64,000 bases of DNA, from the NCBI GenBank assembly GCA_965249485.1, contig CBDFMG010000005.1, positions 97,337 through 161,336 of the forward strand, read 5' to 3'. Every line of letters starts with the position of its first letter. The first letter of the stretch is position 1. A program made the position numbers and the translations under genes. Of this stretch, positions 25,885 through 47,641 are shown in pieces. Under the pieces are notes generated by a model. That model was not told the origin of the DNA. It did no database searches and saw only the letters and a list, made by a program, of their open reading frames with translations. This stretch comes from a bacterium. Its GTDB lineage: Bacteria; SM23-31.

Positions 25885-25885
25885 T

Positions 25886-29601: not shown

Positions 29602-29615
29602 TTGTAATCGTATTT

Positions 29616-30629: not shown

Positions 30630-30671
30630 AGGATCTGACGAAGACTTTACAGAACCAAAAATAGATGTCAA

Positions 30672-31304: not shown

Positions 31305-31397
31305 TGATTTGAAATATTTAGAACTATTTAAGCACCGTGAGCGGGAAATTCCAACCCTAAACGGTGTGGGCTTTCTCGCCCTGATACTGTAAAAAAT

Positions 31398-31943
31398 TCA
31401 TGAGTTTGCACGAAGAATTATGCCATACAGCTCGTCAACTGCACTGCGAATCGCCTCCTCATCAGGTCCGCTACAACTTATCTTTATTGGCTCGACTGTA
31501 GCAAATATGTGCGTTGAGGTATTTCTTCCAGTAATGACTATTGCCTGAAACGCCTCGGTGTCAACTACCACATTATATCTTGCCTTTTCAATCAGAGGTA
31601 TTGCGTTATAGACGTTCACCTTTTCAACAAAGTGTCCGGACATCATTACACGCGTTACTGTGATCTCTGACGAGTCCGTAATGTCAAGCTTTTTCATGAT
31701 GCGTTCTGTGTACTCTATTGCCCTCTCTATTGACTTTGCACCAAGACAGATTATCTTTCCTGTCTTGTACACGTTGACTGTAACTTGTTTTTTGGGACGC
31801 ATGAAGCGAAACTTTGCAGGAGGAAAACCTATGTCACGAAACGCCCCATTGTACTTTACCAGCGCGTCAACATCAAAAGTCTTGCAGCACTCTGTCTTTG
31901 TCACCACGTTTTCAATCTGCAGTTCGACTTTCATCAAATACAA
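31398..31943 (-). CDS. tbp: TATA-box-binding protein (TBP), about 180 aa with two repeats
   Basis: Repeat 1 reads ...QIENVVTKTECCKTFDVDALVKY...PKKQVTVNVYKTGKIICLGAKSIERAIEYTERIMKKL, the TBP pattern N-VV-x-L-D-L ... T-x-LIF-SGK-xVCTGAKS. A shorter second repeat is present. The size is archaeal. The true start is probably the ATG 3 codons inside the TTG-start ORF. Confidence 0.7.
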   Translation of the reverse strand: MYLMKVELQIENVVTKTECCKTFDVDALVKYNGAFRDIGFPPAKFRFMRPKKQVTVNVYKTGKIICLGAKSIERAIEYTERIMKKLDITDSSEITVTRVMMSGHFVEKVNVYNAIPLIEKARYNVVVDTEAFQAIVITGRNTSTHIFATVEPIKISCSGPDEEAIRSAVDELYGIILRANS

Positions 31944-31956
31944 AAATACGATTACA

Positions 31957-31962
31957 ATTTAA
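31957..31962 (-). promoter_or_regulatory. TATA box of tbp (ttaaat on the coding strand)
   Basis: Located about -28 from the ATG. A type-1 hairpin repeat (31966-32016) sits immediately upstream. Confidence 0.4.
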
Positions 31963-32046
31963 CGCTAACTGCCACCGTACAAGTACGGCGGTCTTCTCGC
32001 CGTGTGATTATAATTTCCCCTTAAATACAGTCTTCCTTTTTGTAGA

Positions 32047-32413
32047 TATGCTAGAAAAACGCAAAGAAGAATCAGATAGTATTGGAAAATACCAGGGCAT
32101 ACTTACCAGTGTAGTAATTGCTGCAATGATCATGTGGATTGCACCGATAATGATTCCGTATCTAGTCGGCCTTGAAGGCGAAGACGTAGACGGAAACCAG
32201 CTGTCTGGTGAAGATCTGTTGTTTGCGCCACCTTCAGATTCAGAGCTTCCCGAGGAGATATCTGACAGGATAAGCGGGCTGTTTGGAATCCTGATGTGGT
32301 TTGCAAGAATCGTTCTGATCTTTGGTGTCATAATTGCAGTAATCATACTGCGTATAAGACAAACAGAACCCCAGAACATGCCGATCGCTTTAAACGAAAA
32401 GTGCCTGTGTTGA
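32047..32413 (+). CDS. Small two-helix membrane protein, VirB2/TrbC-pilin-like in topology
   Basis: About 120 aa starting MLEKRKEE... Two hydrophobic helices are separated by an acidic loop. The gene lies just upstream of a VirB3-like and a VirB4-like gene. Confidence 0.35.
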
Positions 32414-32820
32414 ATAGCATATACCATTTTTTTATCATCGGGTTCACAGCATCGTTCATACTGTTTGCAAGTGTCATTTTTTCTGATCAGATAAAGCCCT
32501 ACGAGGGCGCAATGATTGCAGCAGGCATTGTGGCGTACAGCGTGTCATTTTATCTTGATGTAAAATCCACTTGGAGGTTTGGCAGAAGGCGCGTGGCCAC
32601 TATGGAGTCCTCACCGGTTTTTCGAATTATGATAAAAAGGTACGGGTTTGCATCAGCAGTACTCGTCCAGATTGCGACAGAGGCAGGTCTTGCATTTGTC
32701 ATTGTTCCATACTTTGTAGGATACAGTCTTGATGTGATGATATCTTCTGTATCGCTGTTTCTGTTTGGTGTGATGCACATTGTCGGGTTTAGCTCCAACC
32801 GCGTCCTGATAAAAAAATGA
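32400..32820 (+). CDS. Small polytopic membrane protein in a VirB3-like position
   Basis: Start uncertain (GTG/TTG near 32400). Three to four TM helices. Lies between the VirB2-like and VirB4-like genes. Confidence 0.3.
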
Positions 32821-32857
32821 GGTTCTGTTGGGTATCCACAGAAGACACAACAGGACC

Positions 32858-32942
32858 ATATGTTGACCTTTGTGCAAATTTGCACAGAGGTTCTGTCAAC
32901 TGAGACTCGGCATTTGAGTCCGCCAAAGGCGCAGCAGAACTT
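32858..32942 (+). repeat. Type-2 dispersed repeat (~85 bp), copy a of 4, all in the same orientation
   Basis: Consensus CCTTTGTGCAAATTTGCACAGAGGTTCTGTCAACTGAGACTCGGCATTTGAGTCCGCCAAAGGCGCAGCAGAA. It contains the perfect 16-bp palindrome TGTGCAAATTTGCACA. Other copies are at about 39238-39300, 41176-41215 (partial) and 44541-44625. Confidence 0.8.
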
Positions 32943-33030
32943 CCGATGACAGAACTTAGTTTATCATCACACGGCGAGAAGACCGCCGTACAAGTACGGT
33001 GGCAGTTCACAGAACAGCTGACCCTTTTAA

Positions 33031-34956
33031 GTGAACTGGCAATCTCAAGTCGTGTTAGGTATTACAAAGAAAAAGTCAAAAAAGCCTGCAACGCCAAAGC
33101 CAAAGAAAAAAAATGACGTCTCATATGGAATAAGCCCCACAAACTATCTTATCCTATCACCGGACGAAAAGACGCAGGTGCTGCGTTCGTTCATCAACGT
33201 CATACGTTCCATTGAAAAAAAATTACAGATTACAATTGTAAACCAGACAATCCACACAACCTTTGCCGGAAAGGATTATGACTATGTTGAAAAGATGGCG
33301 TACTTTACGTCAAGGCAGGATCTCGGCGTTGCGCTGCTTGGTACGGGGTTCAAGTCGACAAGGCAGGACGAGCCGATTGCATTCAAAGTTGCAAAGGAGA
33401 AAAGATCACATCTTGAGATGGTTGATGGGACATTCTGGAGGACGTATGTCATTTATGATTTCTCAAGAAAAATAGAGCCGGCATGGGTCAACCAGCTCTC
33501 TGCAATATGCGATATGACAAATGTGAGCATATCCCCTATGAAGGTAAGCTCTGCAAAGCGCATGCTCGTAACGCATGCAAACACCCTGGAATCCACAACA
33601 GGAAAGAGACAGCACCAGGAGGCGGCAGATGCAAGGGAGGTTGTAGACATGCTGGTAAAGAACCAGACGTCAGTTTACGAGTGTGGGATCACGGCAGTAG
33701 TCACTGCCACTAGCAGAAAGGAGCTAAAGTCAAGATGCAGGGAGTTTGAGAGAAACGCAAAGATGAGACAGATAAAGTTTCTTGCCGTAAACAGCAAGCA
33801 GAAAGACACCCTTGATGGCTGGGGGCACAAGTTCCTCTTTGAGGAGATGTCATGCTCTGTGTTTTATCCGTTCGAATCCTCAGACATGATAGAGGCAGAC
33901 GGTGCAGGTGGCGTGTACATTGGCACAAACGAGCTTACCGGCACCCCTGTAATCTATGACTACCTGAACAGGACAAACTACAACATGACGATTCTGGGAT
34001 CATCGGGGTTCGGAAAGTCAGTTGCAGCAAAGACATACATTGATAATTTTTATGCCATGATTGCAGAAAAGTACGGACCAGACCAAAAGATAATGTCGTA
34101 CATCCTGGACCTGCACGGGGAATATGTGGAGCTTGCAGGCTATCTGAAAATGGACGTGATGGACCTGATGGGACGTGGAGAGATGGGCCTTGATCCGTTT
34201 ACGCTTCTGGAGTCAAGTGACATGGCAGTTGACTTGATTACAGATGTGGCAAACATGCCACCAGAACTCAAATCACTTACGCTTTCAATGGCAGGCGGTG
34301 TGAGGTCAATCTCAGAGATGGTACGCAGACTTGAAAACGACTCCACTGACAATGCCGAGGACTGCCGAAAGGCGTCAACTTACCTGCTGCAGTTCGTAAA
34401 GGGCGGTCTTGCAAAGATGTTTGGCGGTGAGATGAAGATCAAAGACCGAACAATAATTGCAATGAGAAAGGCAACAGAATCCGACATCAACTCAATGCTG
34501 ATTGCACTGACCATGCAAAAGATATGGATGGACATAATAAGCGCGCCAAGACACGTGTCAAAGCTGCTAGTTATTGAGGAGGCGTGGTTCGTACTGCGCC
34601 TGCCCTCAACTGCTGCAATACTTTCAAACATTGCACGTTCTGGAAGAAAAGAAAACCTGCATCTCATAGTGATGACTCATGACATTGATGATTTTCTACA
34701 AAACGAGTACGGCGCGGCTATCCTCAAAAACTCTGCTACCGTGTTTCTGCTGGGACTAAAGGCATCAACTGCAAAGACACTCCAGGAGGTGCTTGACCTG
34801 TCTGACAATGAAAGAGACGAAATAACATACCTTGACAAGGGACAGGCAATAATGCGTGCAGACAGAAACCGAGTGAAGCTAAAGGTAAAGCCCACTCCAG
34901 AGCAGCTAAAGATATTCAATACGGCAGCATCAGGCTTTGTGCCCACGGGTGACTGA
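33031..34956 (+). CDS. VirB4/TrbE/CedB-like conjugation/secretion ATPase
   Basis: Walker A ILGSSGFGKS. DLHGEY follows about 30 aa later. Walker B LLVIEEAWFVL is the VirB4-family DEAW-type motif. Followed by ARSGRKENLHLIVMTHD. 641 aa. Confidence 0.65.
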   Translation: MNWQSQVVLGITKKKSKKPATPKPKKKNDVSYGISPTNYLILSPDEKTQVLRSFINVIRSIEKKLQITIVNQTIHTTFAGKDYDYVEKMAYFTSRQDLGVALLGTGFKSTRQDEPIAFKVAKEKRSHLEMVDGTFWRTYVIYDFSRKIEPAWVNQLSAICDMTNVSISPMKVSSAKRMLVTHANTLESTTGKRQHQEAADAREVVDMLVKNQTSVYECGITAVVTATSRKELKSRCREFERNAKMRQIKFLAVNSKQKDTLDGWGHKFLFEEMSCSVFYPFESSDMIEADGAGGVYIGTNELTGTPVIYDYLNRTNYNMTILGSSGFGKSVAAKTYIDNFYAMIAEKYGPDQKIMSYILDLHGEYVELAGYLKMDVMDLMGRGEMGLDPFTLLESSDMAVDLITDVANMPPELKSLTLSMAGGVRSISEMVRRLENDSTDNAEDCRKASTYLLQFVKGGLAKMFGGEMKIKDRTIIAMRKATESDINSMLIALTMQKIWMDIISAPRHVSKLLVIEEAWFVLRLPSTAAILSNIARSGRKENLHLIVMTHDIDDFLQNEYGAAILKNSATVFLLGLKASTAKTLQEVLDLSDNERDEITYLDKGQAIMRADRNRVKLKVKPTPEQLKIFNTAASGFVPTGD

Positions 34957-35133
34957 GGAAGAGGGTTCCGTACTTGTACGGTGGCCTTCTCGCCGTGTGA
35001 TTATAATTTACAAAAAATTGTACGGATTTCATCAAAAACAGACAAAAATGACACCGATATTCGCATTTCAAGTGACCCCAAATTTTTTGACTTTTCTGAA
35101 AAATGGGCAAAAATTTTGGCACTAGGCGTGGCT

Positions 35134-35177
35134 TTTTACACTTAGCTACATAAATTTATGTAGCTAAGTGTAAAAAC
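35134..35177. repeat. Perfect 44-bp palindrome
   Basis: TTTTTACACTTAGCTACATAAAT|TTATGTAGCTAAGTGTAAAAA is exactly self-complementary. It is intergenic, between the VirB4-like gene and the tRNA. Confidence 0.8.
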
Positions 35178-35370
35178 GAATTTCGCTATTAAAAACTTGG
35201 AAAAACAGAGAAATTTGTCTCCAAAATAGTAAAAGCATTCCAGTATAAATAAGTTTGGTTCTGGGTAATCTGGGCTCTGTCAAGTTAGCGGGTGTTAGCT
35301 AGAAATTTTATCCGTGTCAAGTGTCGGGTGTTTTAGTTCTTAAAATCAACCCTGTATGATGACATAATAC

Positions 35371-35457
35371 GCAGAGAGTGGGATTCGAACCCACGGTTCG
35401 GTAAAGAACTGATGCTCAAGAGACAACCACTCTAGACCTTACTAAGCAATCTCTGCA
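35371..35457 (-). tRNA. tRNA gene of ~87 nt with no encoded CCA; long variable arm or intron; anticodon not resolved
   Basis: Reverse complement reads GCAGAGA...GTGGGTTCGAATCCCAC TCTCTGC. That gives a perfect 7-bp acceptor stem and a canonical T-arm (GTGGG-TTCGAAT-CCCAC). A GTTC/GAAC extra stem fits a class-II variable arm. I could not fold the D and anticodon arms by eye. Confidence 0.6.
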
Positions 35458-35812
35458 TAAGTCCCAAAAATCATAATGCAATATAAAATACAATGTCCTA
35501 GTGGGATTCTTTACCTTTTTGCCTTCCCAACTAGAACGTTACTGTCTAATCGTGATTTGCAAGGGCACGACACACAAGACAGAATACCAAGAATCGAGGC
35601 ATTTTATATTCAAAAAATTCACATATAACTTTACCGTGCTGGAAATTACTGTAACATACTGTACGGTTCTGTAAAGTCTTCGTTTGTCATGAACCTGAAA
35701 CTATCAAAGACATCTCTTAGCTCGTCTTTTTTGTCGTGGAACTGCCAGACGCACTTTACTTGTTTCTCTAGTTGTTGTTGCTGCTCTTGTTTTTCTAGAT
35801 TCTTGAGGTGGC

Positions 35813-36031
35813 TCATTTGTTTTCAGTCTCTTTGATCCATTTTTTAGTCGCTTCGCGGATGTTGCGTTTTTTTGTGTCCACTTTCAACGGGATATAGATT
35901 CCATTGTCTGTGACGACGAGATCCAAAGAGTCTCCACGTTTAATGTTGTAGTTGTCCCGGATTACTCTTGGCAACAACAGAGCATGGGAATTTCCAACTT
36001 TCAGGACACTACTAGACAAAATAAGTGGCAT
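35813..36031 (-). CDS. AbrB/MazE/SpoVT-family swapped-hairpin DNA-binding protein
   Basis: LKVGNSHALLLPRVIRDNYNIKRGDSLDLVVTDNGIYI matches the AbrB/MazE pattern. The stop overlaps the ATG of a downstream 57-aa ORF (ATGA). Confidence 0.5.
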   Translation of the reverse strand: MPLILSSSVLKVGNSHALLLPRVIRDNYNIKRGDSLDLVVTDNGIYIPLKVDTKKRNIREATKKWIKETENK

Positions 36032-36120
36032 GTTGTTATTGTGTTTTATGTGTACTTAAGTATTACTACTGTTACTATCTTTGTAAAAATATTTATATAC
36101 CACGCTGACTATACTATAGC

Positions 36121-37320
36121 ATGATAAGAATCAGAAAAGACGAGTACATTCGAAGGAGATACGACGCCAAAATAAAGGGGTATGGTGACGGCACGTTGTT
36201 TCTTACAAACAAGCGACTTTGCTTCGAGTCCTCAAAGCACGGCGTATGCTTTAATCTGGAGCTGGCTCACATCTGGGATTGGCTGGCAAAAAAGAAAAAG
36301 ATCCGCATAAGATGGCAAGAGCTATATCCGGGTCAGTCTCAAATTCCATTTGATTCAGAGATTTTTTCAGTTGACATTGAACTCATAAAGAAAAACGGCT
36401 ACAGGGCAGATCCAGAAGAGGTTCACTTTGCATTGTTTTACGCTTACACTGACGAGATGAAGTACGGCTATGATGGTCTTGGTTGGCATGTTAATGAGAA
36501 AAGAGAGTTGCATCACAGATACGATTTGACGCCACAAAAGTACAAAACAAGTGGAATGCGAGAAGTCATGGAAGTTAAGCAATGGCAAGTAGACATCTTA
36601 GAGGAGCAGGAACTGCTAAAGGCGGCAGGCATTGATGAAAAACAAAGATATGAACTGCTCGGAGATTTTGTGGCGTATGGAGATGAATGGGTAGAGTTCT
36701 TCAAGAAAAACACTGGCAAGACACAGCTCGAGCAAGACATCTTCATCAGAGTAGTGAATAGAAAAGCTTGGCAAAAAGATGGTATTTTTGATAAGGTCTA
36801 TGGATTGAAAACAAAAGAGCAAATAGAAAAAAGACTGAAAAACAGATCTGAAAGCACATCTCACGACGAAAACACAATTAAGCATTTAAAACAAGACATC
36901 GCAAAGTATGAAAAGGAAAACAACACCGAGAAACTCACCGAGGTCTTTCCACCAAGCCACGCAAAGCCTGGCGAGCAACCTGTAAGATATATGAACGTCT
37001 TTGGTGCTGATGATTGTCAAGTCCATTCCAGCAACCCAAGACAACACATTCCAAATCTAGGTGGAACTCGACATGACATGGTAAAAAATTTGACACGCAG
37101 ATTGCCTGTATGGAAGCGACTGGAGGAAATATTGACTCCAATGAGATTCGAGTTTCATTCTCAATATGAGGAAGTGAGATTTGCAGTAACTATGAAGCTC
37201 TTAGAAAAAATTGAGAAGGGCGAGGATATTTCAAACTATGTGCCAAAAGTAGAATTGCCAGAATCAAAGACAATTTGGGCTGAAAAACACATTACAGAAT
37301 ACATTCAAAAAGCATCATAA
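36121..37320 (+). CDS. Hypothetical protein
   Basis: 399-aa soluble ORF with no motif I recognise. Embedded in the T4SS-like region. Confidence 0.4.
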   Translation: MIRIRKDEYIRRRYDAKIKGYGDGTLFLTNKRLCFESSKHGVCFNLELAHIWDWLAKKKKIRIRWQELYPGQSQIPFDSEIFSVDIELIKKNGYRADPEEVHFALFYAYTDEMKYGYDGLGWHVNEKRELHHRYDLTPQKYKTSGMREVMEVKQWQVDILEEQELLKAAGIDEKQRYELLGDFVAYGDEWVEFFKKNTGKTQLEQDIFIRVVNRKAWQKDGIFDKVYGLKTKEQIEKRLKNRSESTSHDENTIKHLKQDIAKYEKENNTEKLTEVFPPSHAKPGEQPVRYMNVFGADDCQVHSSNPRQHIPNLGGTRHDMVKNLTRRLPVWKRLEEILTPMRFEFHSQYEEVRFAVTMKLLEKIEKGEDISNYVPKVELPESKTIWAEKHITEYIQKAS

Positions 37321-37338
37321 CAAAAAAAGGGAAATCAT

Positions 37339-39372
37339 TTAATCAAGTGCGTCGACGTTTTTGGTATTTGCCTTGATTTGATTTCGCAGGTCTTTTTCAT
37401 CGATATGGCGTCTTTCTGACATCTCTGCGACGGCTCTTTGGCTTGCGACGTTTGGGTCAATACTGCGATCAGCAGACGTTATTGAAGATACTATCGAATC
37501 CATGTCTGCTTGTGTCGGATTATTTTGTTCCATCGCGGTATTAATCTTGCCCTTCCATTCTGCGATTTTTTCAGCTTGGGCTGGAGTTGTGTGTCCCTCG
37601 TTTTTTCTTTGTAATGTATTAATTGACTCATTCACAGCTTCAATGTTTTCATCTTTCGTCTTTGTATGATCATATTTCATTGGATTTCCATTTCCGTCTG
37701 TAATTCCAGACTGACCCATTTGTCCAACAAATCCAGGTGTCTGGTTTGCAGTGGGATCAGATGTAAACATCTCGTCAATTGCACCGTGCTGCTGCGCCTT
37801 GTCTGCGAACTGCGGACCTCCTCCACCTCCGCCACTTTGTGCAGCAGACTGCATGCCGTGGCCTACTGCTGCAGGATTCAGACCGCCACCCAAACCGGGA
37901 ACCATGCCGACACTGCCGTGAGACTGAAGGAGTCCGCCTCCAAAACCTCCCAGGCCACCCTTGAGCATGGCAAGGCCTCCGCTTCCCTTGTTTTTCATGG
38001 CGCCGCTCACACCGCCTGTGGCTGCCATGCCCGTAACCATTGCTGCTGACTGGACTGCAGAGGACACTGTCTGTGTCGCCATCTGCGTTGCAGACTTTAG
38101 TAAGGGAACCATCAGGACAGGCAGTGTGACTGCAAAGAACACGACACCGATTGCGGTAATCCACGTATGCACGTGATCAAAGCCGCCGCCTGTCTGCGGA
38201 GTCTGCAAAATTGCGCCGGCACCAACCACCAGGATCACAGAAGACATCAGCGGTATCAGCATCAGGGCGGGTATTGCGTCAATGAACTTGTTTGCAATCT
38301 CGTCGCCCTTTGGAATTAGCGACAGCATCAAAAAGAGTGGAAGTCCTGCAACAACCATCGCAGTCAGCATGTCAGTCATTATGCCGATGATCAAGGCCAT
38401 TATGAATATCTGAAGTCCGACAAGTGCCTTTGTCAGGCCGAGGAAAATGTTTGTAAAGGCGCCCTCTGTGCCCTTCTGGATAGAGTCCCCCAAATCACCC
38501 ATCCAGTTGCTTGCAGAGTCGATGTTGAGGCCCGTGCTGTTTTTCAAATCGGGAACATGCGTTGAGCGGAGCATCTGGCCAAAGACATACCTTACCTTAA
38601 AGTCGGGCTTGCAGATCTCCTCGTACCTGTGGCCGTGCAAGTCAACTATGTTGCTGTCAGTCTTCTGGCGGTCTGGAATGAACGGCGAGTCGTGATACTT
38701 TGACACCGCGAGAGACGGCGAATCATAATACTCGGCAGGGCACGGGTTCTGCTCGTCAAAGGAGTACAGTGGGTTTAGAATCCACCTGGATACGTCCTCG
38801 ATTACGAGCGTTGTTCCGTCCCAGAATGGGGGAAACACAAGAATCACAAGCAGAAACAGCACTCCCTTTGAGAGTATCTTGTTTGACGTGCCGGCCCTCA
38901 CAATTCCTGTCTCAGTTGATTCCAGCACTCGTGCGATTCCGGCGTAGATGAAAGCAATGACCATGGCACCAACTGCAATGTATCGCATCTGCACGTACGT
39001 GTCAAACATCTCGTTTCCGCCCTCACCTGTATCAGTTACCTCGTATCCGAATCCCGGCGTGACAAGTACGAGGTCAAGGTAGGTGCTCTCTATGATCCCT
39101 CCAAAGCTGATGACAACGCCGACTAGGGCAAATATCATGACAATCACGCCGCCAATCATTATCATTGATCCAAACGCCGGGCTTTTTGCTTGCATCACAC
39201 CAAAATTGCCGTTACAATATAAGGCCAATTTTGTCCTCGGTTCTGTCAACTGGCACTCAACATTCGAGTCCGCCAAAGGCGCAGCAGAACCAGAACCCCA
39301 ATGGAGTACAAAAAATGAGGGATGCCAAACCCGCCTTGATCGATAACTTTTTAATTTCCAAAAATAATACAA
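37339..39372 (-). CDS. VirB6/TrbL-like polytopic membrane protein with a Gly-rich region
   Basis: Multiple TM helices. A long Gly/Ala/Gln-rich segment resembles TrbL tails. Paralogous to ORF 43100-44428 (shared ...MTDMLTAMV...LPLFL..LSLIP and NP.YS.D...PCP... blocks). Confidence 0.45.
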   Translation of the reverse strand: MYYFWKLKSYRSRRVWHPSFFVLHWGSGSAAPLADSNVECQLTEPRTKLALYCNGNFGVMQAKSPAFGSMIMIGGVIVMIFALVGVVISFGGIIESTYLDLVLVTPGFGYEVTDTGEGGNEMFDTYVQMRYIAVGAMVIAFIYAGIARVLESTETGIVRAGTSNKILSKGVLFLLVILVFPPFWDGTTLVIEDVSRWILNPLYSFDEQNPCPAEYYDSPSLAVSKYHDSPFIPDRQKTDSNIVDLHGHRYEEICKPDFKVRYVFGQMLRSTHVPDLKNSTGLNIDSASNWMGDLGDSIQKGTEGAFTNIFLGLTKALVGLQIFIMALIIGIMTDMLTAMVVAGLPLFLMLSLIPKGDEIANKFIDAIPALMLIPLMSSVILVVGAGAILQTPQTGGGFDHVHTWITAIGVVFFAVTLPVLMVPLLKSATQMATQTVSSAVQSAAMVTGMAATGGVSGAMKNKGSGGLAMLKGGLGGFGGGLLQSHGSVGMVPGLGGGLNPAAVGHGMQSAAQSGGGGGGPQFADKAQQHGAIDEMFTSDPTANQTPGFVGQMGQSGITDGNGNPMKYDHTKTKDENIEAVNESINTLQRKNEGHTTPAQAEKIAEWKGKINTAMEQNNPTQADMDSIVSSITSADRSIDPNVASQRAVAEMSERRHIDEKDLRNQIKANTKNVDALD

Positions 39373-40401
39373 TATTGCCTGACAAGCAATATATGAGAAT
39401 TACAAAAATCAGGGCAAGAAAGCCCACACCGTTCAGGGTTGGGATGAATCGCCCAAAGACTTCAAGTATCAGAAAAACATTATGATATCATTGAACAAAT
39501 CAAAAAATATTGGATTTGAGATCAACACGAGAATCAGTAACACAGATGATTCAGTTCTCATTGGCTCGAATATTAATCAAAATCTAAAAAATGCGAATAT
39601 AAAAAAAATCAATGCATTACTCTACATTGTTGAATCATGAACCTCTAATTGAAAGATATGTGGATGTTAGTAAATTAGCTGGAGAAACTCACAAATTAAT
39701 TGCATTACAAATAGTTGCCACAGAGAAAACATATTCGTCAGAAGAAGGAGATGATTTCAAATTGACACTGACAAAACGTGGTATGATCATACTTAAAAAT
39801 TTACAAAATATGGTGATGATATGAAATGGTTGCATAGACGTAATAACAAAGCATCGAGGACTAGTCTTGAATGAAATAGATGTGATGAAAAAAGCGTTAG
39901 CTGATTCAGATGATGCAGTAAAATTAAAAAACATGAATGAAGAGTTAATGCAACATCTTTCAGGCTCTGTTTACTGGCTAATCAAATATTCTGAAAAATA
40001 CAACATTACATTACCCAAAAAGGAAGAATTGATACGAATGGTTGAAAAGGCAGATCTTATGATTAATCAAATGACTCAAAGAGCCGATCCGACGATTTTT
40101 GACAAAGAGAATTTCCGACGTAGACTTGACAGAACCCGAAAAATGGATCAAGGAGACTGAAAACAAATGAGCCACATCAAGCAACAACAAGTCAAAAAAA
40201 TAATTTCTACGAGTCCATATTAACAACAAGGTTATTATTCTACCAGATGTTCACATGTAAATTATGTCAAAAAAAATAAAACAAATTATAGAAAAAATTG
40301 AACGTGAAAGTTACCAAAACCAGACAGTAGTTCACCGAGCAAATAATTATGATGATGAATTGGATCCTGATTGTTTAAGATTGAGTTCACATTCATAAAA
40401 A

Positions 40402-40557
40402 ATGCCAAATTTTAGTGACATTCAGAAAGAAATTGAACACGAAGATATTCCCACCAAGTATATTATGACAGGTGAAGAAAAAAAGAAGTTGAAAAAATCA
40501 GTAGAAAAGAGCCTAAAACAAAACAAGCTAGTCTATGAAATGCTTCATGACCTTTAA
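40402..40557 (+). CDS. Putative Phd-like antitoxin
   Basis: 51-aa ORF MPNFSDIQKEIEHEDIPTKY... ending about 20 nt inside the Doc-family gene. Too short for the ORF track. Confidence 0.3.
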   Translation: MPNFSDIQKEIEHEDIPTKYIMTGEEKKKLKKSVEKSLKQNKLVYEMLHDL

Positions 40558-41176
40558 TGTCATAACATCTGATGAAATTATTTTCATTCATGAAATAATT
40601 GAAAAGAACTTTGGGTTGCCTAAAGGGCATATCAAAGTTGGCGACTTGGAAACATTACTTGAAAAAAGCAATGGCGTACCATTTTCAGAAAACCGTTATG
40701 ATTTGTTCATGCAAGCGTCAATTATTTTTGAAGGAATAGCAAGACTGCATATTTTTACAGACGGAAACAAAAGAACTGCATTAGAAGCAACAAGACAGTT
40801 TCTAAGTCAGAACAACCACGTTTTTATCATTCCACTAAGTGGAACCAATTTCATATACAATGTGGCAAGGAATGAAACCCATGATACTGACGGGTTAGTA
40901 TCTGACATTTCTGTATGGGTAAAAACGCATTCAGCAAAAATAAGTGAACGGTATAAAATTGCAGGTTTGCTGTTTTTACATCTTCTGCTGCCTTTGAAAC
41001 TGGTTAATTTTTTCTCAAAGATAAAACTAAATCGAATCAGCAGGTGGATACTATACAGATATTTAGAAAACGAGGATCCAAAAATAACAGAGCTCATGTT
41101 TTCAATCTATGAAAAACAGCTCGGTCTTTTTCAACCATCAGCAAAAGGGCATGAAAAACAAGACAAGACACCTTAG
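40535..41176 (+). CDS. Doc/Fic-family toxin
   Basis: HIFTDGNKRTALEA matches the Doc motif HxFx(D/N)GNKR. Confidence 0.6.
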   Translation: MKCFMTFNVITSDEIIFIHEIIEKNFGLPKGHIKVGDLETLLEKSNGVPFSENRYDLFMQASIIFEGIARLHIFTDGNKRTALEATRQFLSQNNHVFIIPLSGTNFIYNVARNETHDTDGLVSDISVWVKTHSAKISERYKIAGLLFLHLLLPLKLVNFFSKIKLNRISRWILYRYLENEDPKITELMFSIYEKQLGLFQPSAKGHEKQDKTP

Positions 41177-41377
41177 TGCAAATTTGCACAAAGGCTCTGT
41201 CAATCGATTCTCATCATTTGAACTTCAACTACACAATAGGCGTTTCCTGATATGACCATCCTCGTTCCTCTATGATTTCCTGTCATCCGTATTAATCCTT
41301 CACTGTTCTTTTTTCTGAACTGACATGCAGTACGTTCACCTTGTATTGCATCATTTGTGCGATAATGAATTGGCATG

Positions 41378-41683
41378 TCATTCTAACTTTTCAGTAATTT
41401 GTTCACTTTCTTTTAATTCAGACATTACATCCATCACCATTTTTAGATCTAAATCATATTCATTAGCTATGTCACTTGGATAAAATGCCTGACCAGTACT
41501 GATTTCTTTTAATACAATCTTCTTTACACTTTCTCTATCCAAGTCAAAATTATCCTCATCTTTGCTTGCTTGTGTTTCATCCAATCCATGAATCCTGACC
41601 ATATCCCACAATGTTTTATTCTCCGTTAACAGTCTTTCCATTAACTCACACAATTCACTAGTCAGATATGTCAAACTGTTCAC
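41378..41683 (-). CDS. Small acidic hypothetical protein
   Basis: 101-aa ORF with no motif. Confidence 0.3.
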   Translation of the reverse strand: MNSLTYLTSELCELMERLLTENKTLWDMVRIHGLDETQASKDEDNFDLDRESVKKIVLKEISTGQAFYPSDIANEYDLDLKMVMDVMSELKESEQITEKLE

Positions 41684-41875
41684 GTCGCCATATTCATTTT
41701 TCTGGAATTCATCTTCTCTGCTATGTCTGAATCTATTTTGCCTTTAACTTTCTTTGGAATTTGACATTCAATTGACATCAACTCCAAATCACTAAATACA
41801 CTTTCTAAAACCTCACTTACGAACAATCATCATCCGATGGTATAATTATGGCATTAGCCCAAAAATTATTAGAAA

Positions 41876-42736
41876 TTGTCACGTTATAAAAACCCAAGAA
41901 TTAATGTGAATATGAGTTCCGCCAAAGGAGTTATGATTGGCATTGTCGTACTAATTATTATTGGAGTTGCAGTAGCTTCTGCAGTACAAATCGTAGATGC
42001 GGGGCATAGAGGTGTTTTACTGCATTGGAATGCAGTTGATGTAACTGCCCAACCTTTAGAAGAAGGGCTTCACTTTGTAATGCCATTTGCAGATTCTGTT
42101 GTCAATATGGAAGTTAGAACACTAAAGTTTGTAAAATCAACATCTTCAGCATCTAAAGACCTTCAGACAGTTTCTACTGAAATTACAGTAAACTACCATC
42201 CATCTCCTGATTCAGTTAACTTCCTCTACAAAGAAGTTGGTCTTGACTATGAGAACAGAATTATCACGCCAACTGTAGAAGAAGTTGTAAAACAAGTTAC
42301 TGCAAACTATAACGCTGAGGAATTAATCACAAAAAGACCACAAGTAAAATCTGACATTGAAGCACAGATTAACAGTCGTTTGGTTGGCTTTAACGTTATT
42401 ACAGAAATAGTATCAATTACTGACTTTCAATTCTCAGCACTATTTGCACGAGCAATTGAAGATAAAGTAGAGGCAGAACAAAAGGCACTAAAGGCAGAAA
42501 ATGACCTTAGAAGAATCGAGGTAGAGGCAAGACAACATGCGGCAGAGGCAGAAGGTATTGCTGCAGCAAACATTGCAGAAGCAAACGGTGAAGCCGAAGC
42601 AATTAGAATTATTAACGAAGCCCTATCATCCAACCCTAACTATTTGGAATGGCTAAAAACACAAGCATGGGATGGAAGATTACCATTGGTAGTTGGTGAA
42701 GGCGGAACACCATTTATTGCAATCCCAACTGAATAA
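41876..42736 (+). CDS. SPFH/band-7 (prohibitin/stomatin-like) membrane protein
   Basis: N-terminal TM segment, SPFH core (GHRGVLLHW...MPFADSVVNMEVR...), and a C-terminal Ala/Glu-rich coiled coil (EAEQKALKAENDLRRIEVEARQHAAEAEG). Confidence 0.65.
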   Translation: MSRYKNPRINVNMSSAKGVMIGIVVLIIIGVAVASAVQIVDAGHRGVLLHWNAVDVTAQPLEEGLHFVMPFADSVVNMEVRTLKFVKSTSSASKDLQTVSTEITVNYHPSPDSVNFLYKEVGLDYENRIITPTVEEVVKQVTANYNAEELITKRPQVKSDIEAQINSRLVGFNVITEIVSITDFQFSALFARAIEDKVEAEQKALKAENDLRRIEVEARQHAAEAEGIAAANIAEANGEAEAIRIINEALSSNPNYLEWLKTQAWDGRLPLVVGEGGTPFIAIPTE

Positions 42737-42834
42737 TTCCTGTCTAATTCTTTTTCTCAGCATCTGATTTGTCTCTTACAGTGCTGTGTTTCTCAACGTG
42801 ACTAGTTTGCCCAACTAATTCTACCAAACAAGCT

Positions 42835-43098
42835 TTGGATCAGAACATTTTGTATTATTTTATGAATAGGAATTGGAAAAAATACAACACATCACTAGTT
42901 AGACGTGGGGAAATCATGCTCTCCTTTGATGCCGTGGAACAGTGGGGTACAGAACTCAAGGAGATGAACCACAAAAAGGAAGGACGTCAGTATATCTATC
43001 CTGAATCCTTCATGGAGGCACTAGGGGAAGTGACGCTTGTGGAGAGTGCAAAGCATTCAATGAAACAGGAAGAGGCCACCGTACTTGTACGGTGGTAG
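42835..43098 (+). pseudogene. N-terminal fragment of an IS5-family transposase, truncated by a type-1 hairpin repeat
   Basis: ...SFDAVEQWGTELKEMNHKKEGRQYIYPESFMEALG matches the N-terminal region of ORF 11239-12075. The reading frame runs into the repeat (ccaccgtacttgtacggtgg) and stops. Confidence 0.5.
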
Positions 43099-43099
43099 T

Positions 43100-44428
43100 T
43101 CACTCTTCACCTTTACCACCAGCAGCACCGCCGTCTTTCTCAGGACTGGACATAGCGCTACCCTCGTGCGCCGTTATTCCGCCTTTGATGCCACCAGACA
43201 CGCTGCCCTTGAACCCACCTTTTGCGTAACCCTGTATTGCGCCCTTTCCTGCCATGGCAGTGATGAATAACGCCGTAGTTACTGCCGATGTCATCACCTG
43301 CATTGTAGATCCTACAACTGATGAGAGCAGTGGCACCATTAGCATCGGAATGGATACTGCAAAAAATACCACGCCAAGCGATGCAATCCAGACATATATC
43401 AGAGTGGTGTCAAAGCCTGCAATTATCTCACCTGTGTTTGCAGTGCCTGCCGATGCGATAAAGCTCGCACCGACACTGATTACAATTGCAGAGACCAGCG
43501 GTATGAGGTACAGTCCCGGCAGTGCCTGCAGGAACTTTGCGACGATTTTGTCAAAGCGCGGAATCAGCGACAGTGCCAGGAACAGCGGCAGTGACACAAT
43601 CACCATCGCAGTCAGCATGTCAGTCATCATGCTGATTATCATGGACAGCAGTGAAACGTTGATCACTATTATTGCCTGTGCAAACCCGAAAAACGTGTCT
43701 GCCAGCACGTTTGTAAACGCGCCGGATATCTGATTGGTGATCCATTCCAGCGTGTTTGCGCCCTCGGGCAGTTCATATGATGCGGTGCCTGCCATCTGCT
43801 GTATGACATAGTGGACCTTAAAGTCAGGCCTGCACACTATCTCTGCCTTTTTGATGTCGGTTCCAAAAAAGTCATACGCCGTTCCGTCCTTGTCATACTT
43901 TGAGTCGTTGTATTCGCGGATTATTTTTTGATCAGACCAGTCATCAGGACACGGCGAGTCGGGGTCGTATGAATAGTTCGGGTTTAGCACCCATACTGCT
44001 GCAATCTCCATTCCGTCAGCTACTGCATCCCATATGAATGGAAACAGCGCAATCAGAAATATGATCATGACACATCTTGAGATTAGCTTTCCTCCCAGCC
44101 CCTTTTGTACGGTTGAGACTTCGGACTGCTCAAAAAATTTCAGCAGTACTGCAACTACGACGACCACTGCAATCAGGATCAGTGCCAGAAATCGCATCTG
44201 CGTGAATGTCTCAAATATGTAGTTTCCATGCTCTGTGCCGTCATTTTGTATGGAATACTCAAAGACCGGCAGTGTGATCAGCTGAAGCGTGTACGCGCTG
44301 TCCATCATGTCGCCTATGTCGTTTGCAATATTGGAAAAGGTAATCTGTATGAGTATTATGGCAAGTATGGTTACTGCAGCGTCTATCAGCTCTGTGATGA
44401 TTGCCGGGTGTTGTTTTTTCAACAACAC
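43100..44428 (-). CDS. VirB6/TrbL-like polytopic membrane protein, paralog of 37339-39372
   Basis: 442 aa with multiple TM helices. Shares conserved blocks with 37339-39372. Lys/Gly-rich tail. Confidence 0.45.
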   Translation of the reverse strand: MLLKKQHPAIITELIDAAVTILAIILIQITFSNIANDIGDMMDSAYTLQLITLPVFEYSIQNDGTEHGNYIFETFTQMRFLALILIAVVVVVAVLLKFFEQSEVSTVQKGLGGKLISRCVMIIFLIALFPFIWDAVADGMEIAAVWVLNPNYSYDPDSPCPDDWSDQKIIREYNDSKYDKDGTAYDFFGTDIKKAEIVCRPDFKVHYVIQQMAGTASYELPEGANTLEWITNQISGAFTNVLADTFFGFAQAIIVINVSLLSMIISMMTDMLTAMVIVSLPLFLALSLIPRFDKIVAKFLQALPGLYLIPLVSAIVISVGASFIASAGTANTGEIIAGFDTTLIYVWIASLGVVFFAVSIPMLMVPLLSSVVGSTMQVMTSAVTTALFITAMAGKGAIQGYAKGGFKGSVSGGIKGGITAHEGSAMSSPEKDGGAAGGKGEE

Positions 44429-44658
44429 CCAAGGCAGTATTCATTATAAGGAGCGTGGATTTCTCAAAGAGGATTCCGTGAACTGCCGCCGTACAAGTAC
44501 GGCGGCCTTCTCGCCGTGTGATTATAAATTGTCATCCTGCATGTTGGCCTTTGTGCAAATTTGCACAGAGGTTCTGTCAACTGAGACTCGGCATTTGAGT
44601 CCGCCAAAGGCGCAGCAGAATCCAGGGGCCTTATAAACAACTACACATCTGATGGGTA

Positions 44659-46155
44659 TTGTTTGGATGGAAGAAATCAGAAAAAGAAGAGTCCGTAAAG
44701 TACAAGCTATCGCACATGGATGTTGACGTTACAGGGCTTGACATAGTGGAGGAATACAAGGTAGGCAAGGTAAAAGTCTACATCACGTCAGACTCAAGAT
44801 ACCTGGTAAAAGAGCCGCCTATAGGCGACTCTGCAGTGAATTTGTACAATACCATCATCGACAAAATTAACATGGGAGTCGAGCTAACAGACGCGGATAA
44901 GGACCCCAAAGTTCTTGCCGACAAGCTGGAAAAGGCATTTTGGGATACTGCAAAGAGACTTGAAAGGTATGACGAGGCGACACGGATGTTTCCTGACCTG
45001 ACGTACTACATTCACCGCGAGATGCTAGGTTATGGGATTATTGATCCGCTGATGAAGGATCCTGCAATCGAGGATATCCTGTGCTCTGCATACGACAGAA
45101 ACGTCCGCGTGATACACAAAAGATATTCCGGCATTCACCACAGCCTTGAGACAAACATTGCATTTGAGAGCGTCACTGAGATGGAGAGGTTCATCCAGAA
45201 GGTGTATAGTAAGACAGGTACGGAGCCCACAGAATCAAGACCGATGTCTGTCACACACATGGCAGACGGCTCCAGAATCTCTGCCACCTTTGGAAAACAG
45301 GTGACACAGCCTGGCCCGATAATTGCGATACGAAAGTTTCCAACAGAGCCGTTTACGATAACCGACATGCTAAAGACAGGGCACCTGTCATCTCAGATGG
45401 CAGCATACATCTGGACTATGCTTGATGCAAAGGCAGTGGGGCTGGTAATCGGTGTCACAGGATCCGGCAAGACTACCCTGCTTTCTGCGTTTGTATCGAT
45501 GATGAACCCGGGGTGGAGGATACTCACAATTGAGGATACGCTGGAACTGCAGATACCGCATGAGGACTGGGTTAGGGCAAACACCAGAAAAAGCTACGGA
45601 ATGCTTTCAGAGAAATTCGACATACCCATCAGAAGCCTGATTGACATGTCACTTACACAGAGGCCGGACTACGAGATTGTCGGCGAAATCAGACTGGATG
45701 ACATGGATGCGCTGTTTCAGAGTGTCGGCACCGGACACGGCGGGTTGACAAGCTTTCACGCATCAACCCCAGGGGGCGCACTGACTCGAATGAGGGGAAA
45801 CAAGATCAGCGAAGGCGAGCTTGCACTGCTGTGGTTTACGGTGCACTCTGCCAGCATAACAAGGGACGGAGTCGACACAAGAAAGGTGACAGATATCTCA
45901 GAGATAGTGCCAGACGAGATGACCGGCACAGTTGCAGTTAATAACATATTCAAGTATGATATTTTTAAGGACAAGTTTGTGCAGAACCAGTCACTTGAGG
46001 AATCATACAGATACCAGGAGGCCTTGCAGATATGCGGAATCCTAGATCCAAAAGAAGACATGAAAAAAAGAATAGCCCTCCTTGAGCAGTGTGTCAGCAA
46101 GGACGTCTCTGACGTGCACAAGGTCTTTGAGATTCTTAGAAGATATTACGAATGA
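44659..46155 (+). CDS. VirB11/FlaI/GspE-family secretion ATPase
   Basis: Walker A GVTGSGKTTLL. Asp box ILTIEDTLEL. His-box-like RPDYEIVGEIR. 498 aa. Confidence 0.7.
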   Translation: MFGWKKSEKEESVKYKLSHMDVDVTGLDIVEEYKVGKVKVYITSDSRYLVKEPPIGDSAVNLYNTIIDKINMGVELTDADKDPKVLADKLEKAFWDTAKRLERYDEATRMFPDLTYYIHREMLGYGIIDPLMKDPAIEDILCSAYDRNVRVIHKRYSGIHHSLETNIAFESVTEMERFIQKVYSKTGTEPTESRPMSVTHMADGSRISATFGKQVTQPGPIIAIRKFPTEPFTITDMLKTGHLSSQMAAYIWTMLDAKAVGLVIGVTGSGKTTLLSAFVSMMNPGWRILTIEDTLELQIPHEDWVRANTRKSYGMLSEKFDIPIRSLIDMSLTQRPDYEIVGEIRLDDMDALFQSVGTGHGGLTSFHASTPGGALTRMRGNKISEGELALLWFTVHSASITRDGVDTRKVTDISEIVPDEMTGTVAVNNIFKYDIFKDKFVQNQSLEESYRYQEALQICGILDPKEDMKKRIALLEQCVSKDVSDVHKVFEILRRYYE

Positions 46156-46159
46156 CGGC

Positions 46160-47641
46160 CTACATTCCTGTCTGAATGTATGTTGATTTGATAGTCACTT
46201 CTGCATCAACATTGCCAACAGTATCCAATAATACGTAGCCAGGAAGTGAGTGGCTGTCAATGAATCCCATAACATTATTGATCACGTAAAACTCTACAAT
46301 GTCCCCGGATTCTACAGGAACTGATGCGTGCCCTTCGTAACGAAGATCATCATATATGTATTCTATAGATCGTGCGGATACAATTATTGATCCTAAATCT
46401 TCAATGGACGTTATTGGTATGGAAGTTGGACTGTCATTATACCCAAGCGGTACTGACTTTACCAAATCACCGTTCACATAGACGTCCATAGTATTTGTCA
46501 GTGGATCTACTGGTGGTGGCGGTGGCGGTGGGATTGATCTGTCTTTGTAATAGTACGTATTGCTAAGTTTCATGGTTCCTGTAACCTCTGAATTAAACAA
46601 TGCGTTCATTGTGCCATCTGTACTGGCAATGGCATATGCAGATGCAACGACAGTGACACTTCCTTCCCTTACCTCATACGGATAAAATTCATTTTTAGTA
46701 GAAGTCTTGTCTTCAATCAAAAACAGCTCACGCTGACCCAGATTGTTGCCGTATTCAATTTGCACTTTCTGGGTGCCGTTGAGTATCATGTGTATCACTT
46801 TATGGTTTGCCACAAACGGCACATATACTGATTCCCCTAACTCATACTCCCCTGACAGATATGGAAGTGGAAGCGTTTCATCAAGGGACACATCACTCAC
46901 AGAAACGTCACCTGAAAACGGCACCTTAACGTATGCTATTGCACTGTACATTGAGTTGCTAATTCCAGGATCTGCTACAAACTGACGGTTATGGATGTCA
47001 TATACAGTAGGTGTGTTTGTATTAGTCATCGTCACTACCTCTGAGTCTATGTACAGCGTCAGTTTTACATCATCAACTACTGGCATTTCTGAATCTAAAA
47101 TATTCCATGGAACCTGGCTCGAAGTGATCTCAATTACTCCATCTTCTGTACCAATGCCGTCAACTACCTTCTTCCCATTAATTTCAAGAGAGTATGGCAT
47201 ATTCTCAGGGACGTTTGATATGTGCAAAAGATCAGTCTGTCCTGGTTTGATGTAATTTACACGTACGCCGATGTCACTGTTTTCAAGATCCGCTACAAAA
47301 TACGTTTTATCACTGCTTGGAAGGTTCCATGTCCTTTCAGGTGTCGTAGATTTTGTTTTTACAGGAAGTGAGTCATATATCGTATTATGATGGATGACTG
47401 TGTTTCTCGCCAAGAGGCTCCAGGCATATATCATATTAGGATTATTGCTGAGGACTAATTCTCTTGCAATCCTGCTGTCGCTCAGATTCATATAGTCTAT
47501 TTCTTGTATTTCAAGATAGCCGTTATTATTGAATACCGGCGTAAAAAATGTATTTATAGTGGCATGGTCATACTGGTGAGTAAATGTAAATGAACTCACT
47601 ACATTGTTTGCAGTTCCTCTTCCTGAGATACTTTTGGTCAT
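46160..47641 (-). CDS. Large hypothetical protein, probably extracellular
   Basis: 493 aa, Ser/Thr/Asn-rich with a PPPPPPP tract. Start uncertain. Confidence 0.35.
   Translation of the reverse strand: MTKSISGRGTANNVVSSFTFTHQYDHATINTFFTPVFNNNGYLEIQEIDYMNLSDSRIARELVLSNNPNMIYAWSLLARNTVIHHNTIYDSLPVKTKSTTPERTWNLPSSDKTYFVADLENSDIGVRVNYIKPGQTDLLHISNVPENMPYSLEINGKKVVDGIGTEDGVIEITSSQVPWNILDSEMPVVDDVKLTLYIDSEVVTMTNTNTPTVYDIHNRQFVADPGISNSMYSAIAYVKVPFSGDVSVSDVSLDETLPLPYLSGEYELGESVYVPFVANHKVIHMILNGTQKVQIEYGNNLGQRELFLIEDKTSTKNEFYPYEVREGSVTVVASAYAIASTDGTMNALFNSEVTGTMKLSNTYYYKDRSIPPPPPPPVDPLTNTMDVYVNGDLVKSVPLGYNDSPTSIPITSIEDLGSIIVSARSIEYIYDDLRYEGHASVPVESGDIVEFYVINNVMGFIDSHSLPGYVLLDTVGNVDAEVTIKSTYIQTGM

Follow-up and report, generated by a model that had tools for sequence, protein, structure and literature searches.

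Conjugation is poorly understood in archaea, and Thaumarchaeota are globally important nitrifiers. To our knowledge, a relaxase is known for no archaeal conjugative element, and we know of no experimental work on conjugation in Thaumarchaeota. The integrative conjugative elements (ICEs) described in this group carry VirB4, VirD4, VirB6, VirB3, TadC, FlaI/PilT, prepilin peptidase and pilins; relaxases are absent, and a TFIIB homologue is found in all of them, usually beside ParB (PMC6563490). Named examples are NCAV2-E1/E2, NitEve-E6, NitGar-E3, NitVie-E3 and NitNCS1-E3 (PMC5797428, PMC6563490), and NCAV2-E2, which has no integrase, has been called an "immobilized conjugative element" (PMC5797428). 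In the Sulfolobales, Ups pili aggregate cells and the Ced translocon, which resembles a type IV secretion system (T4SS), moves DNA (PMC9905601, PMC11868833). Here we compare these systems with a gene cluster in a 64,000-nucleotide stretch of contig CBDFMG010000005.1 (positions 97,337 to 161,336; "the window"). On balance we think it probable that the window acquired by horizontal transfer, and now holds in rearranged and probably immobilised form, a conjugation-like cluster that is conserved in the Nitrosopumilaceae, comprising a pilus and a VirB4/VirB6/coupling-ATPase translocon.

The cluster lies in a GC-rich island at 14.9-50.3 kb of the window, whose main (T4SS) blocks have 45-46% GC against 32-36% in the AT-rich flanks. 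An earlier description made from the letters of the DNA (the sequence-only reading) had placed T4SS-like genes for DNA transfer in a GC-rich island at 32047-46155. Both the gene set and the island, which is horizontally acquired, hold up, and every open reading frame (ORF) named is present, with coordinates exact or off by one base, but the range left out roughly half of the system, whose extent is 14928 to ~48735. Missing from it were the coupling ATPase at 14928-17846, the strongest argument for DNA transfer, and the UpsF-like platform, the partner of the FlaI-type ATPase. The two explanations offered at the time, a decaying ICE and a Ced/Ted-like chromosomal system, are still the live ones. 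The central genes are as follows (TM, transmembrane).

33031-34956, plus strand: VirB4-family ATPase (Pfam AAA_10, P-loop_TraG)
44659-46155, plus strand: FlaI/GspE-type type-IV-filament assembly ATPase, 498 aa (Pfam T2SSE 4.5e-28)
14928-17846, minus strand: coupling-protein-like (VirD4/TrwB-type) ATPase, 972 aa
17836-19710, minus strand: platform protein (UpsF/TadC/FlaJ-like), ~8-9 TM helices (Pfam T2SSF 5.2e-12)
37339-39372, minus strand: VirB6/TrbL-like polytopic protein, long type, 677 aa, ~6 TM helices
43100-44428, minus strand: VirB6-like polytopic protein, short type, 442 aa
32048-32413, plus strand: two-helix membrane protein (formerly "VirB2-like"), 121 aa, 2 TM helices
32401-32820, plus strand: four-TM membrane protein (formerly "VirB3-like"), 139 aa, ~4 TM helices
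31398-31943, minus strand: divergent TATA-binding-protein (TBP) paralogue, first gene of its operon (Pfam TBP 1.8e-11)

The VirB4 identity was tested with several types of profile. The protein matches Pfam AAA_10 (6.5e-12, 45.6 bits; cut-off 27.5) and P-loop_TraG (3.9e-11, 42.7 bits; cut-off 25.8), and its motifs are GSSGFGKS (Walker A) and VIEEAW (Walker B). A profile of 14 family members finds VirB4 in the PDB (4ag5) at 3.5e-24, with HerA behind at 5e-8. NCBIfam models of VirB4-type conjugation ATPases match at 1e-33 to 4e-14, and CedB at 4.5e-6; the Ced models give 25.6 bits for CedB (cut-off 700) and 27.5 bits for CedD (cut-off 600). The AAA_10 domain, whose absence together with CagE would have spoken against the sequence-only reading by its own account, is thus present. 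The relatives that can be detected number 58 and are thaumarchaeal almost throughout; none was found in IMG/VR.

The coupling ATPase exceeds the cut-offs of Pfam TrwB_AAD_bind, DUF87 and AAA_10 and matches the NCBIfam TraD coupling protein at 4.6e-13. Its AlphaFold model (pLDDT 77.9) aligns to the entire TrwBdeltaN70 (Foldseek E ~1e-11, template-modelling score 0.60). Coupling proteins are defined by an FtsK/HerA-type NTPase with an all-alpha domain, most bacterial members having an N-terminal TM anchor, and the window protein falls within this class; unlike bacterial VirD4, it has no TM helix. Its 271 relatives occur in the same genomes and contigs as VirB4.

The ATPase at 44659-46155 had been described as VirB11-like. 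Members of the VirB11 family match VirB11/TrbB-clade models best and have ~330-350 aa, whereas this protein is longer and finds afGspE (2oap) at 6e-61, FlaI at 2e-52 and VirB11 at 1.5e-8 in the PDB; in NCBIfam it matches FlaI at 3e-75 (253.9 bits), BasE at 5e-67 (226.7 bits) and VirB11 at 2e-23 (82.9 bits). It is therefore placed in the archaeal FlaI/GspE/BasE type-IV-filament clade, the VirB11 matches being far weaker. The platform protein matches NCBIfam UpsF at 5.3e-67 and BasF at 1.9e-32. Together with the pilin-like proteins described below, these two define, as judged from their sequences, a type IV pilus module, and because a FlaI-type ATPase and an UpsF-like platform are both present, the cluster combines a T4SS-like translocon with a type IV pilus. 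Assignment to a pilus in place of a T4SS, which the sequence-only reading had named as the outcome that would undo it, applies to the FlaI-type ATPase alone and not to VirB4, the coupling ATPase or the VirB6-like set.

When species-representative genomes were scanned, 20 loci in Nitrosopumilaceae emerged, and the window proteins were mapped onto these (related loci and contigs carry L numbers below). The same ~15 genes recur, their order largely kept, in ~20 loci across several genera, and the cluster, ~35-45 kb in length, is conserved. The shared core consists of (i) the FlaI-type ATPase/VirB4 pair, (ii) the operon of the two-helix and four-TM proteins, (iii) the TBP paralogue, (iv) the pilin, PH, 232-aa and 276-aa genes and (v) the VirB6-like and GRAM-like proteins. 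Conservation is highest for the FlaI-type ATPase, with 56-69% identity in most loci; its gene lies directly upstream of VirB4, divergently, in 15 related loci; in the window the two genes are 9.7 kb apart and both on the plus strand. The two-helix/four-TM operon stands just downstream of VirB4, convergently, in several loci. Apart from the window, a collinear two-helix/four-TM/VirB4 order was seen only in L001, a metagenome contig with 99% identity to it, so the "canonical VirB2-B3-B4 order" claimed for the window is lineage-specific; elsewhere the conserved neighbour of VirB4 is the divergent FlaI-type ATPase. In Cenarchaeum symbiosum A, the VirB4 and coupling-ATPase loci abut (627,193-649,097 and 650,329-672,980), and they are likewise contiguous in OY759726.1. 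Both of these genomes have the operon tail in the order of the window, with proteins of ~276, ~130, ~1000 and ~600 aa followed by T2SSF and the coupling ATPase, and in both the platform gene is immediately upstream of the coupling ATPase.

The genes might instead be unrelated mobile-element debris, brought together by accident and with no common function. The island is indeed a mosaic, with low-GC inserts, insertion sequence (IS) and TnpB remnants, miniature inverted-repeat transposable elements (MITEs) and toxin-antitoxin (TA) genes between the blocks. Synteny shared by ~20 independent loci means that the co-location is not due to chance, and we give an accidental neighbourhood hardly any credence.

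The OZ220738.1 chromosome has two distinct VirB4 loci, L016 and L019, one with an adjacent FlaI-type ATPase (44% identity to the window VirB4) and the other without it (37%). In C. symbiosum A, a copy of amoC lies directly downstream of VirB4 (L002 11967-12530, ~639 kb), which recalls the amoC on ICE NitEve-E6.

The membrane components of the translocon have weak family assignments or none. The long and short VirB6-like proteins are paralogues, as had been claimed (34% identical, E 2e-79; 6-7 TM helices), but their assignment to the family is sub-threshold. For the long type, Pfam TrbL gives 0.0026 (18 bits, below the cut-off of 25.9), the only such match when eight family members were scanned, and a TrbL_3 match is precomputed on 98%-identical orthologues; a search of PDB sequences gave no match. 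Going by these scores, both can be assigned to VirB6/TrbL only weakly. The long type is orthologous to a 680-aa protein of C. symbiosum, and homologues of the short type occur in L004, L006 and L025. A recent VirB6 duplication was considered and rejected: the two types coexist in C. symbiosum too, which makes the pair old, and it cannot serve as the sign of ongoing rearrangement for which it had been taken. A conserved partner of the long type is encoded beside it.

36121-37320, plus strand: GRAM/PH-like protein, 399 aa (Pfam GRAM 1.7e-5)

The GRAM-like gene also adjoins VirB6 in C. symbiosum, where two GRAM-like copies flank IS66.

The labels given earlier to the two small membrane proteins have no family support. 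The gene called VirB2-like exists, its start being 32048 and not the out-of-frame 32047, and the label had two-helix topology as its sole basis. The sequence features an N-terminal MLEKRKEES, an FxPP...LP.E loop and a W..RIV helix. Homologues (E 1e-4 to 1e-28) were found in 12 related genomes, directly upstream of the four-TM gene in 9 of them. There is no sequence match to solved conjugative pilins and no similarity to CedA1 or TedC; the AlphaFold2 model is poor (pLDDT 57.7, too uncertain for fold comparison), and Foldseek returned nothing. The inter-helix loop has ~25-35 residues; that of conjugative pilins is far shorter. VirB3 proteins match a VirB3 profile, have ~100 aa and 1-2 TM helices; the four-TM protein differs in each respect, and no VirB3 signal was seen in eight family members at E up to 5 or in PDB sequences. 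Its invariant residues are D, T, E, E, H and N. It may, speculatively, assist the two-helix protein as a partner or in its maturation.

Conservation of the coupling ATPase in its C-terminal half reaches from the Nitrosopumilaceae to Nitrososphaera and other Nitrososphaerota. In the structure model this half has a winged helix, an alpha/beta domain (~554-676) and a second winged helix (~786-865). The alpha/beta domain is predicted, at pLDDT 85-95, as alpha-beta-beta-beta-alpha-beta-alpha-beta, with predicted elements H554-568, E573-576, E588-597, E603-621, H628-640 and E644-649. H556, D577, G579, W610, E619, E621 and N634 are invariant, and D587 (in "PDLLI"), K626 and K637 nearly so. In the model, the topology and the D ... 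ExE ... K pattern look like those of a PD-(D/E)xK nuclease. A Pfam scan of the domain, 12 family members and 10 short homologues gave no nuclease family, and a PDB profile search gave no match. The module is nearly restricted to its own family, with 99 relatives among 1.84 billion representatives, mostly in the same fusion. There is a precedent for such an enzyme in conjugation: the bacterial MOBC relaxases, such as TraX of pAD1, are of a non-HUH, PD-(D/E)xK type related to restriction endonucleases (PMC6499999). No sequence similarity to MOBC was detected, and, unlike in MOBC, the domain proposed here forms part of the coupling ATPase and has only a predicted fold. Given this precedent, a nuclease fused to a coupling ATPase is reasonable as a substitute for a relaxase, and the winged-helix and PD-(D/E)xK-like module could fill that role by analogy.

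The cluster can be pictured as two coupled machines, a type IV pilus and a T4SS-like translocon. The pilus (FlaI-type ATPase, UpsF-like platform, pilin-like and large surface proteins) would establish cell-cell contact, as Ups pili do. The translocon would consist of VirB4, the two VirB6-like channel proteins and the two small membrane proteins and would be fed by the soluble coupling ATPase. Family-level gene identities, synteny, anomalous GC, rearrangements and deletion variants are observed; DNA as the substrate, the sharing of tasks, the nuclease role and the loss of mobility are inferred. The DNA would be recognised and cut by the candidate module of the coupling ATPase. The TBP paralogue of the cluster probably drives transcription of the long operon.

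How does this arrangement compare with the described elements? With the thaumarchaeal ICEs it shares a VirB4 and VirD4-like pair, VirB6-like proteins, a TadC-like platform, a FlaI-type ATPase, pilins, large surface proteins, TA and methylase cargo, the lack of a relaxase, anomalous GC and the little conserved order between elements. It differs from them in that no attachment (att) sites and intact integrase, TFIIB-ParB pair, prepilin peptidase or replication module were seen, and from the published ICEs in its conserved TBP paralogue and in a long gene order kept across genera. The cluster belongs to the thaumarchaeal kind of conjugative element, as an integrase-less variant. With bacterial VirB/VirD4 T4SSs it has in common an AAA_10 VirB4, the TrwB-like fold of the coupling ATPase and a TrbL/VirB6-like protein, but a VirB11-clade ATPase, recognisable VirB2, B3, B5 and B7-B10 and an HUH relaxase are missing, and the coupling ATPase has extra C-terminal domains but no N-terminal TM anchor.

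Several results weigh against reading the window as an immobilised copy of such an element: (i) no att sites were found in the window, nor an intact integrase, a replication module or an origin of transfer; (ii) in most related genomes no integrase was seen within +/-10 kb; (iii) the scanned ORFs of the window have no Peptidase_A24 match and thus no prepilin peptidase, a host-encoded copy elsewhere being possible; (iv) the pilin-like proteins and the small membrane proteins at 32048-32413 and 32401-32820 have no family support, and the VirB6 assignment is below threshold in current Pfam; (v) the nuclease fold of domain 554-676, predicted from motifs and secondary structure, found no match in Pfam, PDB-sequence or whole-protein structure searches; and (vi) the census of integrated mobile genetic elements (iMGEs) has only CenSym-E3 as its C. 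symbiosum entry, without the 627-673 kb region (PMC6563490).

Some of these points would suit a domesticated chromosomal DNA-exchange system of the Nitrosopumilaceae, an analogue of Ups plus Ced/Ted kept by the host and not selfish. Its gene content and order are conserved across genomes whose GC ranges over 36-69%. The cluster of C. symbiosum, at 56-59% GC, is near the average of its host, which we take to be ~58%. Integrase, att, replication and relaxase genes were seen neither here nor within +/-10 kb of the related loci, and the C. symbiosum region is not in the iMGE census. The UpsF-like pilus with VirB4 and VirB6 also parallels Ups plus Ced: shared are a type IV pilus with an UpsF-like platform and a FlaI/UpsE-type ATPase, a VirB4-like ATPase, VirB6-like channel paralogues that recall CedA and CedE, a small two-helix protein and the lack of a relaxase. 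The parallel does not extend to identity. Going by the model scores, the cluster is not a member of Ced, its ATPase being a true VirB4 and not CedB/CedD; its genes are grouped, whereas Ced genes, which serve DNA import, are dispersed over the chromosome; and the window cluster looks foreign to its host. It carries a VirD4/TrwB-type coupling ATPase, a hallmark of exporting conjugative systems that is not listed for Ced/Ted, and lies ~10 GC points above its flanks, with genes of IS, TA and defence systems around it. One genome, OZ220738.1, has two copies that differ, deletion and truncation variants stand side by side in one metagenome, and the cultured Nitrosopumilus genomes surveyed have no VirB4-type clusters (PMC6563490). 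The sole Nitrosopumilus "ICE" of that census, NitAR2-E3, has pilus genes, TFIIB, ParB and an integrase, without VirB4 and VirD4 (PMC6563490). We hold domestication to be the less likely explanation, though it is the main rival.

A surface-filament, adhesion or protein-secretion system, serving symbiosis or a biofilm, could also have co-opted VirB4-type ATPases with no DNA transfer. Such a function would account for the full set of pilus assembly genes, for several large proteins, secreted or anchored, in which cupredoxin, MG2 and Ig-like signals were detected, for the FlaI-type ATPase being the gene most strongly conserved and for the loci from sponge symbionts (C. symbiosum and the metagenome-assembled genomes (MAGs) labelled APA, PfA and TS, the latter taken as such from their record names). 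It would leave unexplained the TrwB-like coupling ATPase with two winged-helix domains of DNA-binding type, and no effector-like cargo was recognised. Moreover, VirB4, VirB6 and a coupling ATPase form the signature by which archaeal conjugative elements are defined (PMC6563490). We regard a function restricted to adhesion or secretion as improbable.

A bolder proposal can be made, to which we attach low confidence: Nitrosopumilaceae, including the sponge symbiont C. symbiosum, may carry a conserved DNA-exchange machine without integrase or relaxase, made up of an Ups-like pilus, VirB4, two VirB6-like proteins and a coupling ATPase and controlled by its own TBP paralogue, in which the coupling ATPase itself recognises DNA (winged helix) and cuts it (PD-(D/E)xK-like domain). 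If true, DNA could be loaded into an archaeal conjugation channel with no relaxase involved, and genes could flow by this route among ammonia-oxidising archaea. The window points to a well-conserved, syntenic lineage of conjugation-like clusters in marine and sponge-associated Nitrosopumilaceae that escaped the integrase- and att-based census of mobile elements, and to the C-terminal module as a specific candidate for the missing DNA-processing step. If the window holds only a decaying element, it adds one more member to a class already described and illustrates well how IS, TnpB and MITEs erode such elements.

A long minus-strand operon runs from 31943 down to 14928, with the TBP paralogue first and the coupling ATPase last. 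Between the TBP paralogue and the platform gene it includes the following.

30672-31304, minus strand: pilin-like protein, 210 aa, whose charged N-terminus leads into a hydrophobic helix, in the manner of a class III signal
29037-29480, minus strand: bacterial-PH-domain protein in the pilin operon (Pfam bPH_3 1.3e-8)
24634-28773, minus strand: conserved operon genes for a 129-aa protein with a pilin-like N-terminal TM segment, a soluble protein of 276 aa, a secreted one of 730 aa and a membrane protein of 232 aa
19707-24661, minus strand: two large surface proteins of 675 aa (cupredoxin and MG2) and 1017 aa

The pilins are identified from N-terminal topology only; the 210-aa protein is conserved in 10 related loci, and the bPH_3 gene comes after the pilin gene in L002, L005 and L006. 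The proteins of 24634-28773 have no Pfam or NCBIfam family, and those of 276 and 232 aa are conserved in 7-8 related loci. Both surface proteins have a signal-like N-terminal segment and a C-terminal TM segment, and similar-sized proteins fill their operon slots in L025 and L026. The TBP paralogue matches NCBIfam TBP models at ~1e-11, far under the equivalog cut-offs, and has homologues in L002, L005, L006, L008, L015, L021 and L022. Its conservation suggests transcription initiation specific to the cluster.

The region had been thought to be rearranged, and this is borne out by repeats, gene order and variants. The relevant features are as follows.

44466-49077: segment between inverted copies of a 50-nt hairpin (inverted repeat I3, 44469-44528 / 49018-49077)
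46160-47641 and 47878-48465, minus strand: secreted protein, apparently split into at least two ORFs
48478-48735, minus strand: 85-aa protein, whose gene adjoins the ATPase in L004 and L009
32860-32939, plus strand: 80-nt segment with the palindrome GTGCAAATTTGCAC, upstream of VirB4
29596-30656, plus strand: scar ORF, an inverted duplicate of the TBP 5' end fused to a C-terminal TnpB remnant (IS200/605-type)
935(+), 31981(+), 32992(-), 34976(+), 43085(-), 44495(+), 49050(-), 50323(-): centres of the hairpin element

The block from the FlaI-type ATPase to the 85-aa gene (44.5-49.0 kb) appears to be inverted, and re-inverting it would restore the order of L004 and L009. The split secreted protein corresponds to a single 773-aa protein in L005 that aligns to both pieces. 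The hairpin element, 50 nt and GC-rich with the consensus GTGAACTGCCRCCGTACAAGTACGGYGGCCTTCTCGCCGTGTGATTATAA, is present in 8 copies where 0 are expected by chance, and its copies bracket the operon of the two small membrane proteins, VirB4, the short VirB6 gene, the ATPase block and a PIN gene. It was found only in the near-identical contigs L001, L003 and L024; distant loci are without it. At 31964-32014, one arm of a 385+44-nt inverted repeat contains a copy as a clean insertion of 46 nt that the second arm (29591-29595) does not have, which suggests that the element is or was mobile, like a MITE or a palindrome-associated transposable element (PATE). The 385-nt part of this repeat is perfect (29596-29980 / 31579-31963) and duplicates the start of the TBP gene. 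The scar ORF formed there carries TBP and Cas12f1-like_TNB domains, which are on separate ORFs in L001.

A second copy of the 80-nt segment, 99% identical, lies at 44541-44620 upstream of the FlaI-type ATPase. The palindrome GTGCAAATTTGCAC occurs three times in perfect form, at 32872-32885, 41176-41189 (just after Fic) and 44553-44566. It may be a shared operator, a putative role; three of 100 shuffles also had three matches at up to 2 mismatches.

Contigs nearly identical to the window, all from one metagenome, show further variants. TnpB (~400 aa) is intact and near the tRNA in L001 (8195-9394) and L024 (14020-15225), against a remnant at 30189-30656 in the window; in L001 the intact TnpB is inserted after position 35683, and the GRAM-like gene is inverted and 87.6% identical to the window copy. 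In L024, 4.7 kb of IS-rich DNA stands in place of the whole left half (13816-32843), a 19-kb deletion, and the GRAM-like gene is duplicated around TnpB. VirB4 alleles truncated to 512-553 aa exist, one of which is present in a Nitrosopumilus MAG as a 1958-nt fragment only. These mobile-element scars and population variants, with the split gene of the secreted protein, point to decay.

The borders of the island offer no sign of site-specific integration. The attL/attR candidates at 13742-13815, 51917-51989 and 55695-55767 proved to be termini of IS or MITEs and not att sites; they recur at 1159 and 62220, and the copies at 1159, 13790 and 62220 are beside or close to IS transposase genes. Those at 51821-51989 and 55599-55767 are MITE-like, 169 nt long and 98% identical, with terminal inverted repeats of their own, and this pair flanks a DNA methylase and the only integrase sequence.

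54801-55538: integrase fragment, 245-aa catalytic domain only

The claim that the sole integrase is truncated is therefore correct. The fragment lies 6 kb outside the island, with the methylase between the MITE copies and next to the host rpS2. A split integrase of the SSV type was considered and rejected: the abutting repeat has in-frame stops, and the other copy is without an N-terminal half. The scanned ORFs of 14.9-50.3 kb yielded neither a relaxase nor Rep, TFIIB or ParB, in agreement with the sequence-only reading as to the relaxase, and TFIIB and ParB are also absent from the precomputed domains of L002, L025 and L026. Two ORFs proposed as places for a relaxase or HUH fold showed none in their sequences: 36121-37320 has only its GRAM/PH-like N-terminus, and 46160-47641 looks like a piece of the secreted protein.

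Two low-GC inserts, at 35.0-36.1 kb (tRNA and MazE) and 39.4-43.1 kb (Fic and SPFH), part the T4SS blocks. Their genes are present as first described.

35369-35457, minus strand: tRNA-Lys(CTT), 89 nt, in the first of these inserts
35813-36031: MazE-like gene
40535-41176: Fic/Doc gene
41876-42736: SPFH gene

The tRNA has a modest Rfam score of 47.7 bits in an insert of 37% GC; given this score and its length, it may be intron-bearing or degenerate. It is confined to the near-identical contigs. As an integration target it is not supported, the window having no partial tRNA copy and the other related loci no such tRNA.

The flanks (1-14537 and 56958-64000) form a mobilome and defence hotspot with two IS110 and two DDE_Tnp_1 transposases. 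Also encoded there are a PIN protein, a protein with a TIR domain (13830-14537) and, at 57893-59641, an abortive-infection protein of the AIPR type. A solitary gene for ribosomal protein S2 is located at 55917-56540.

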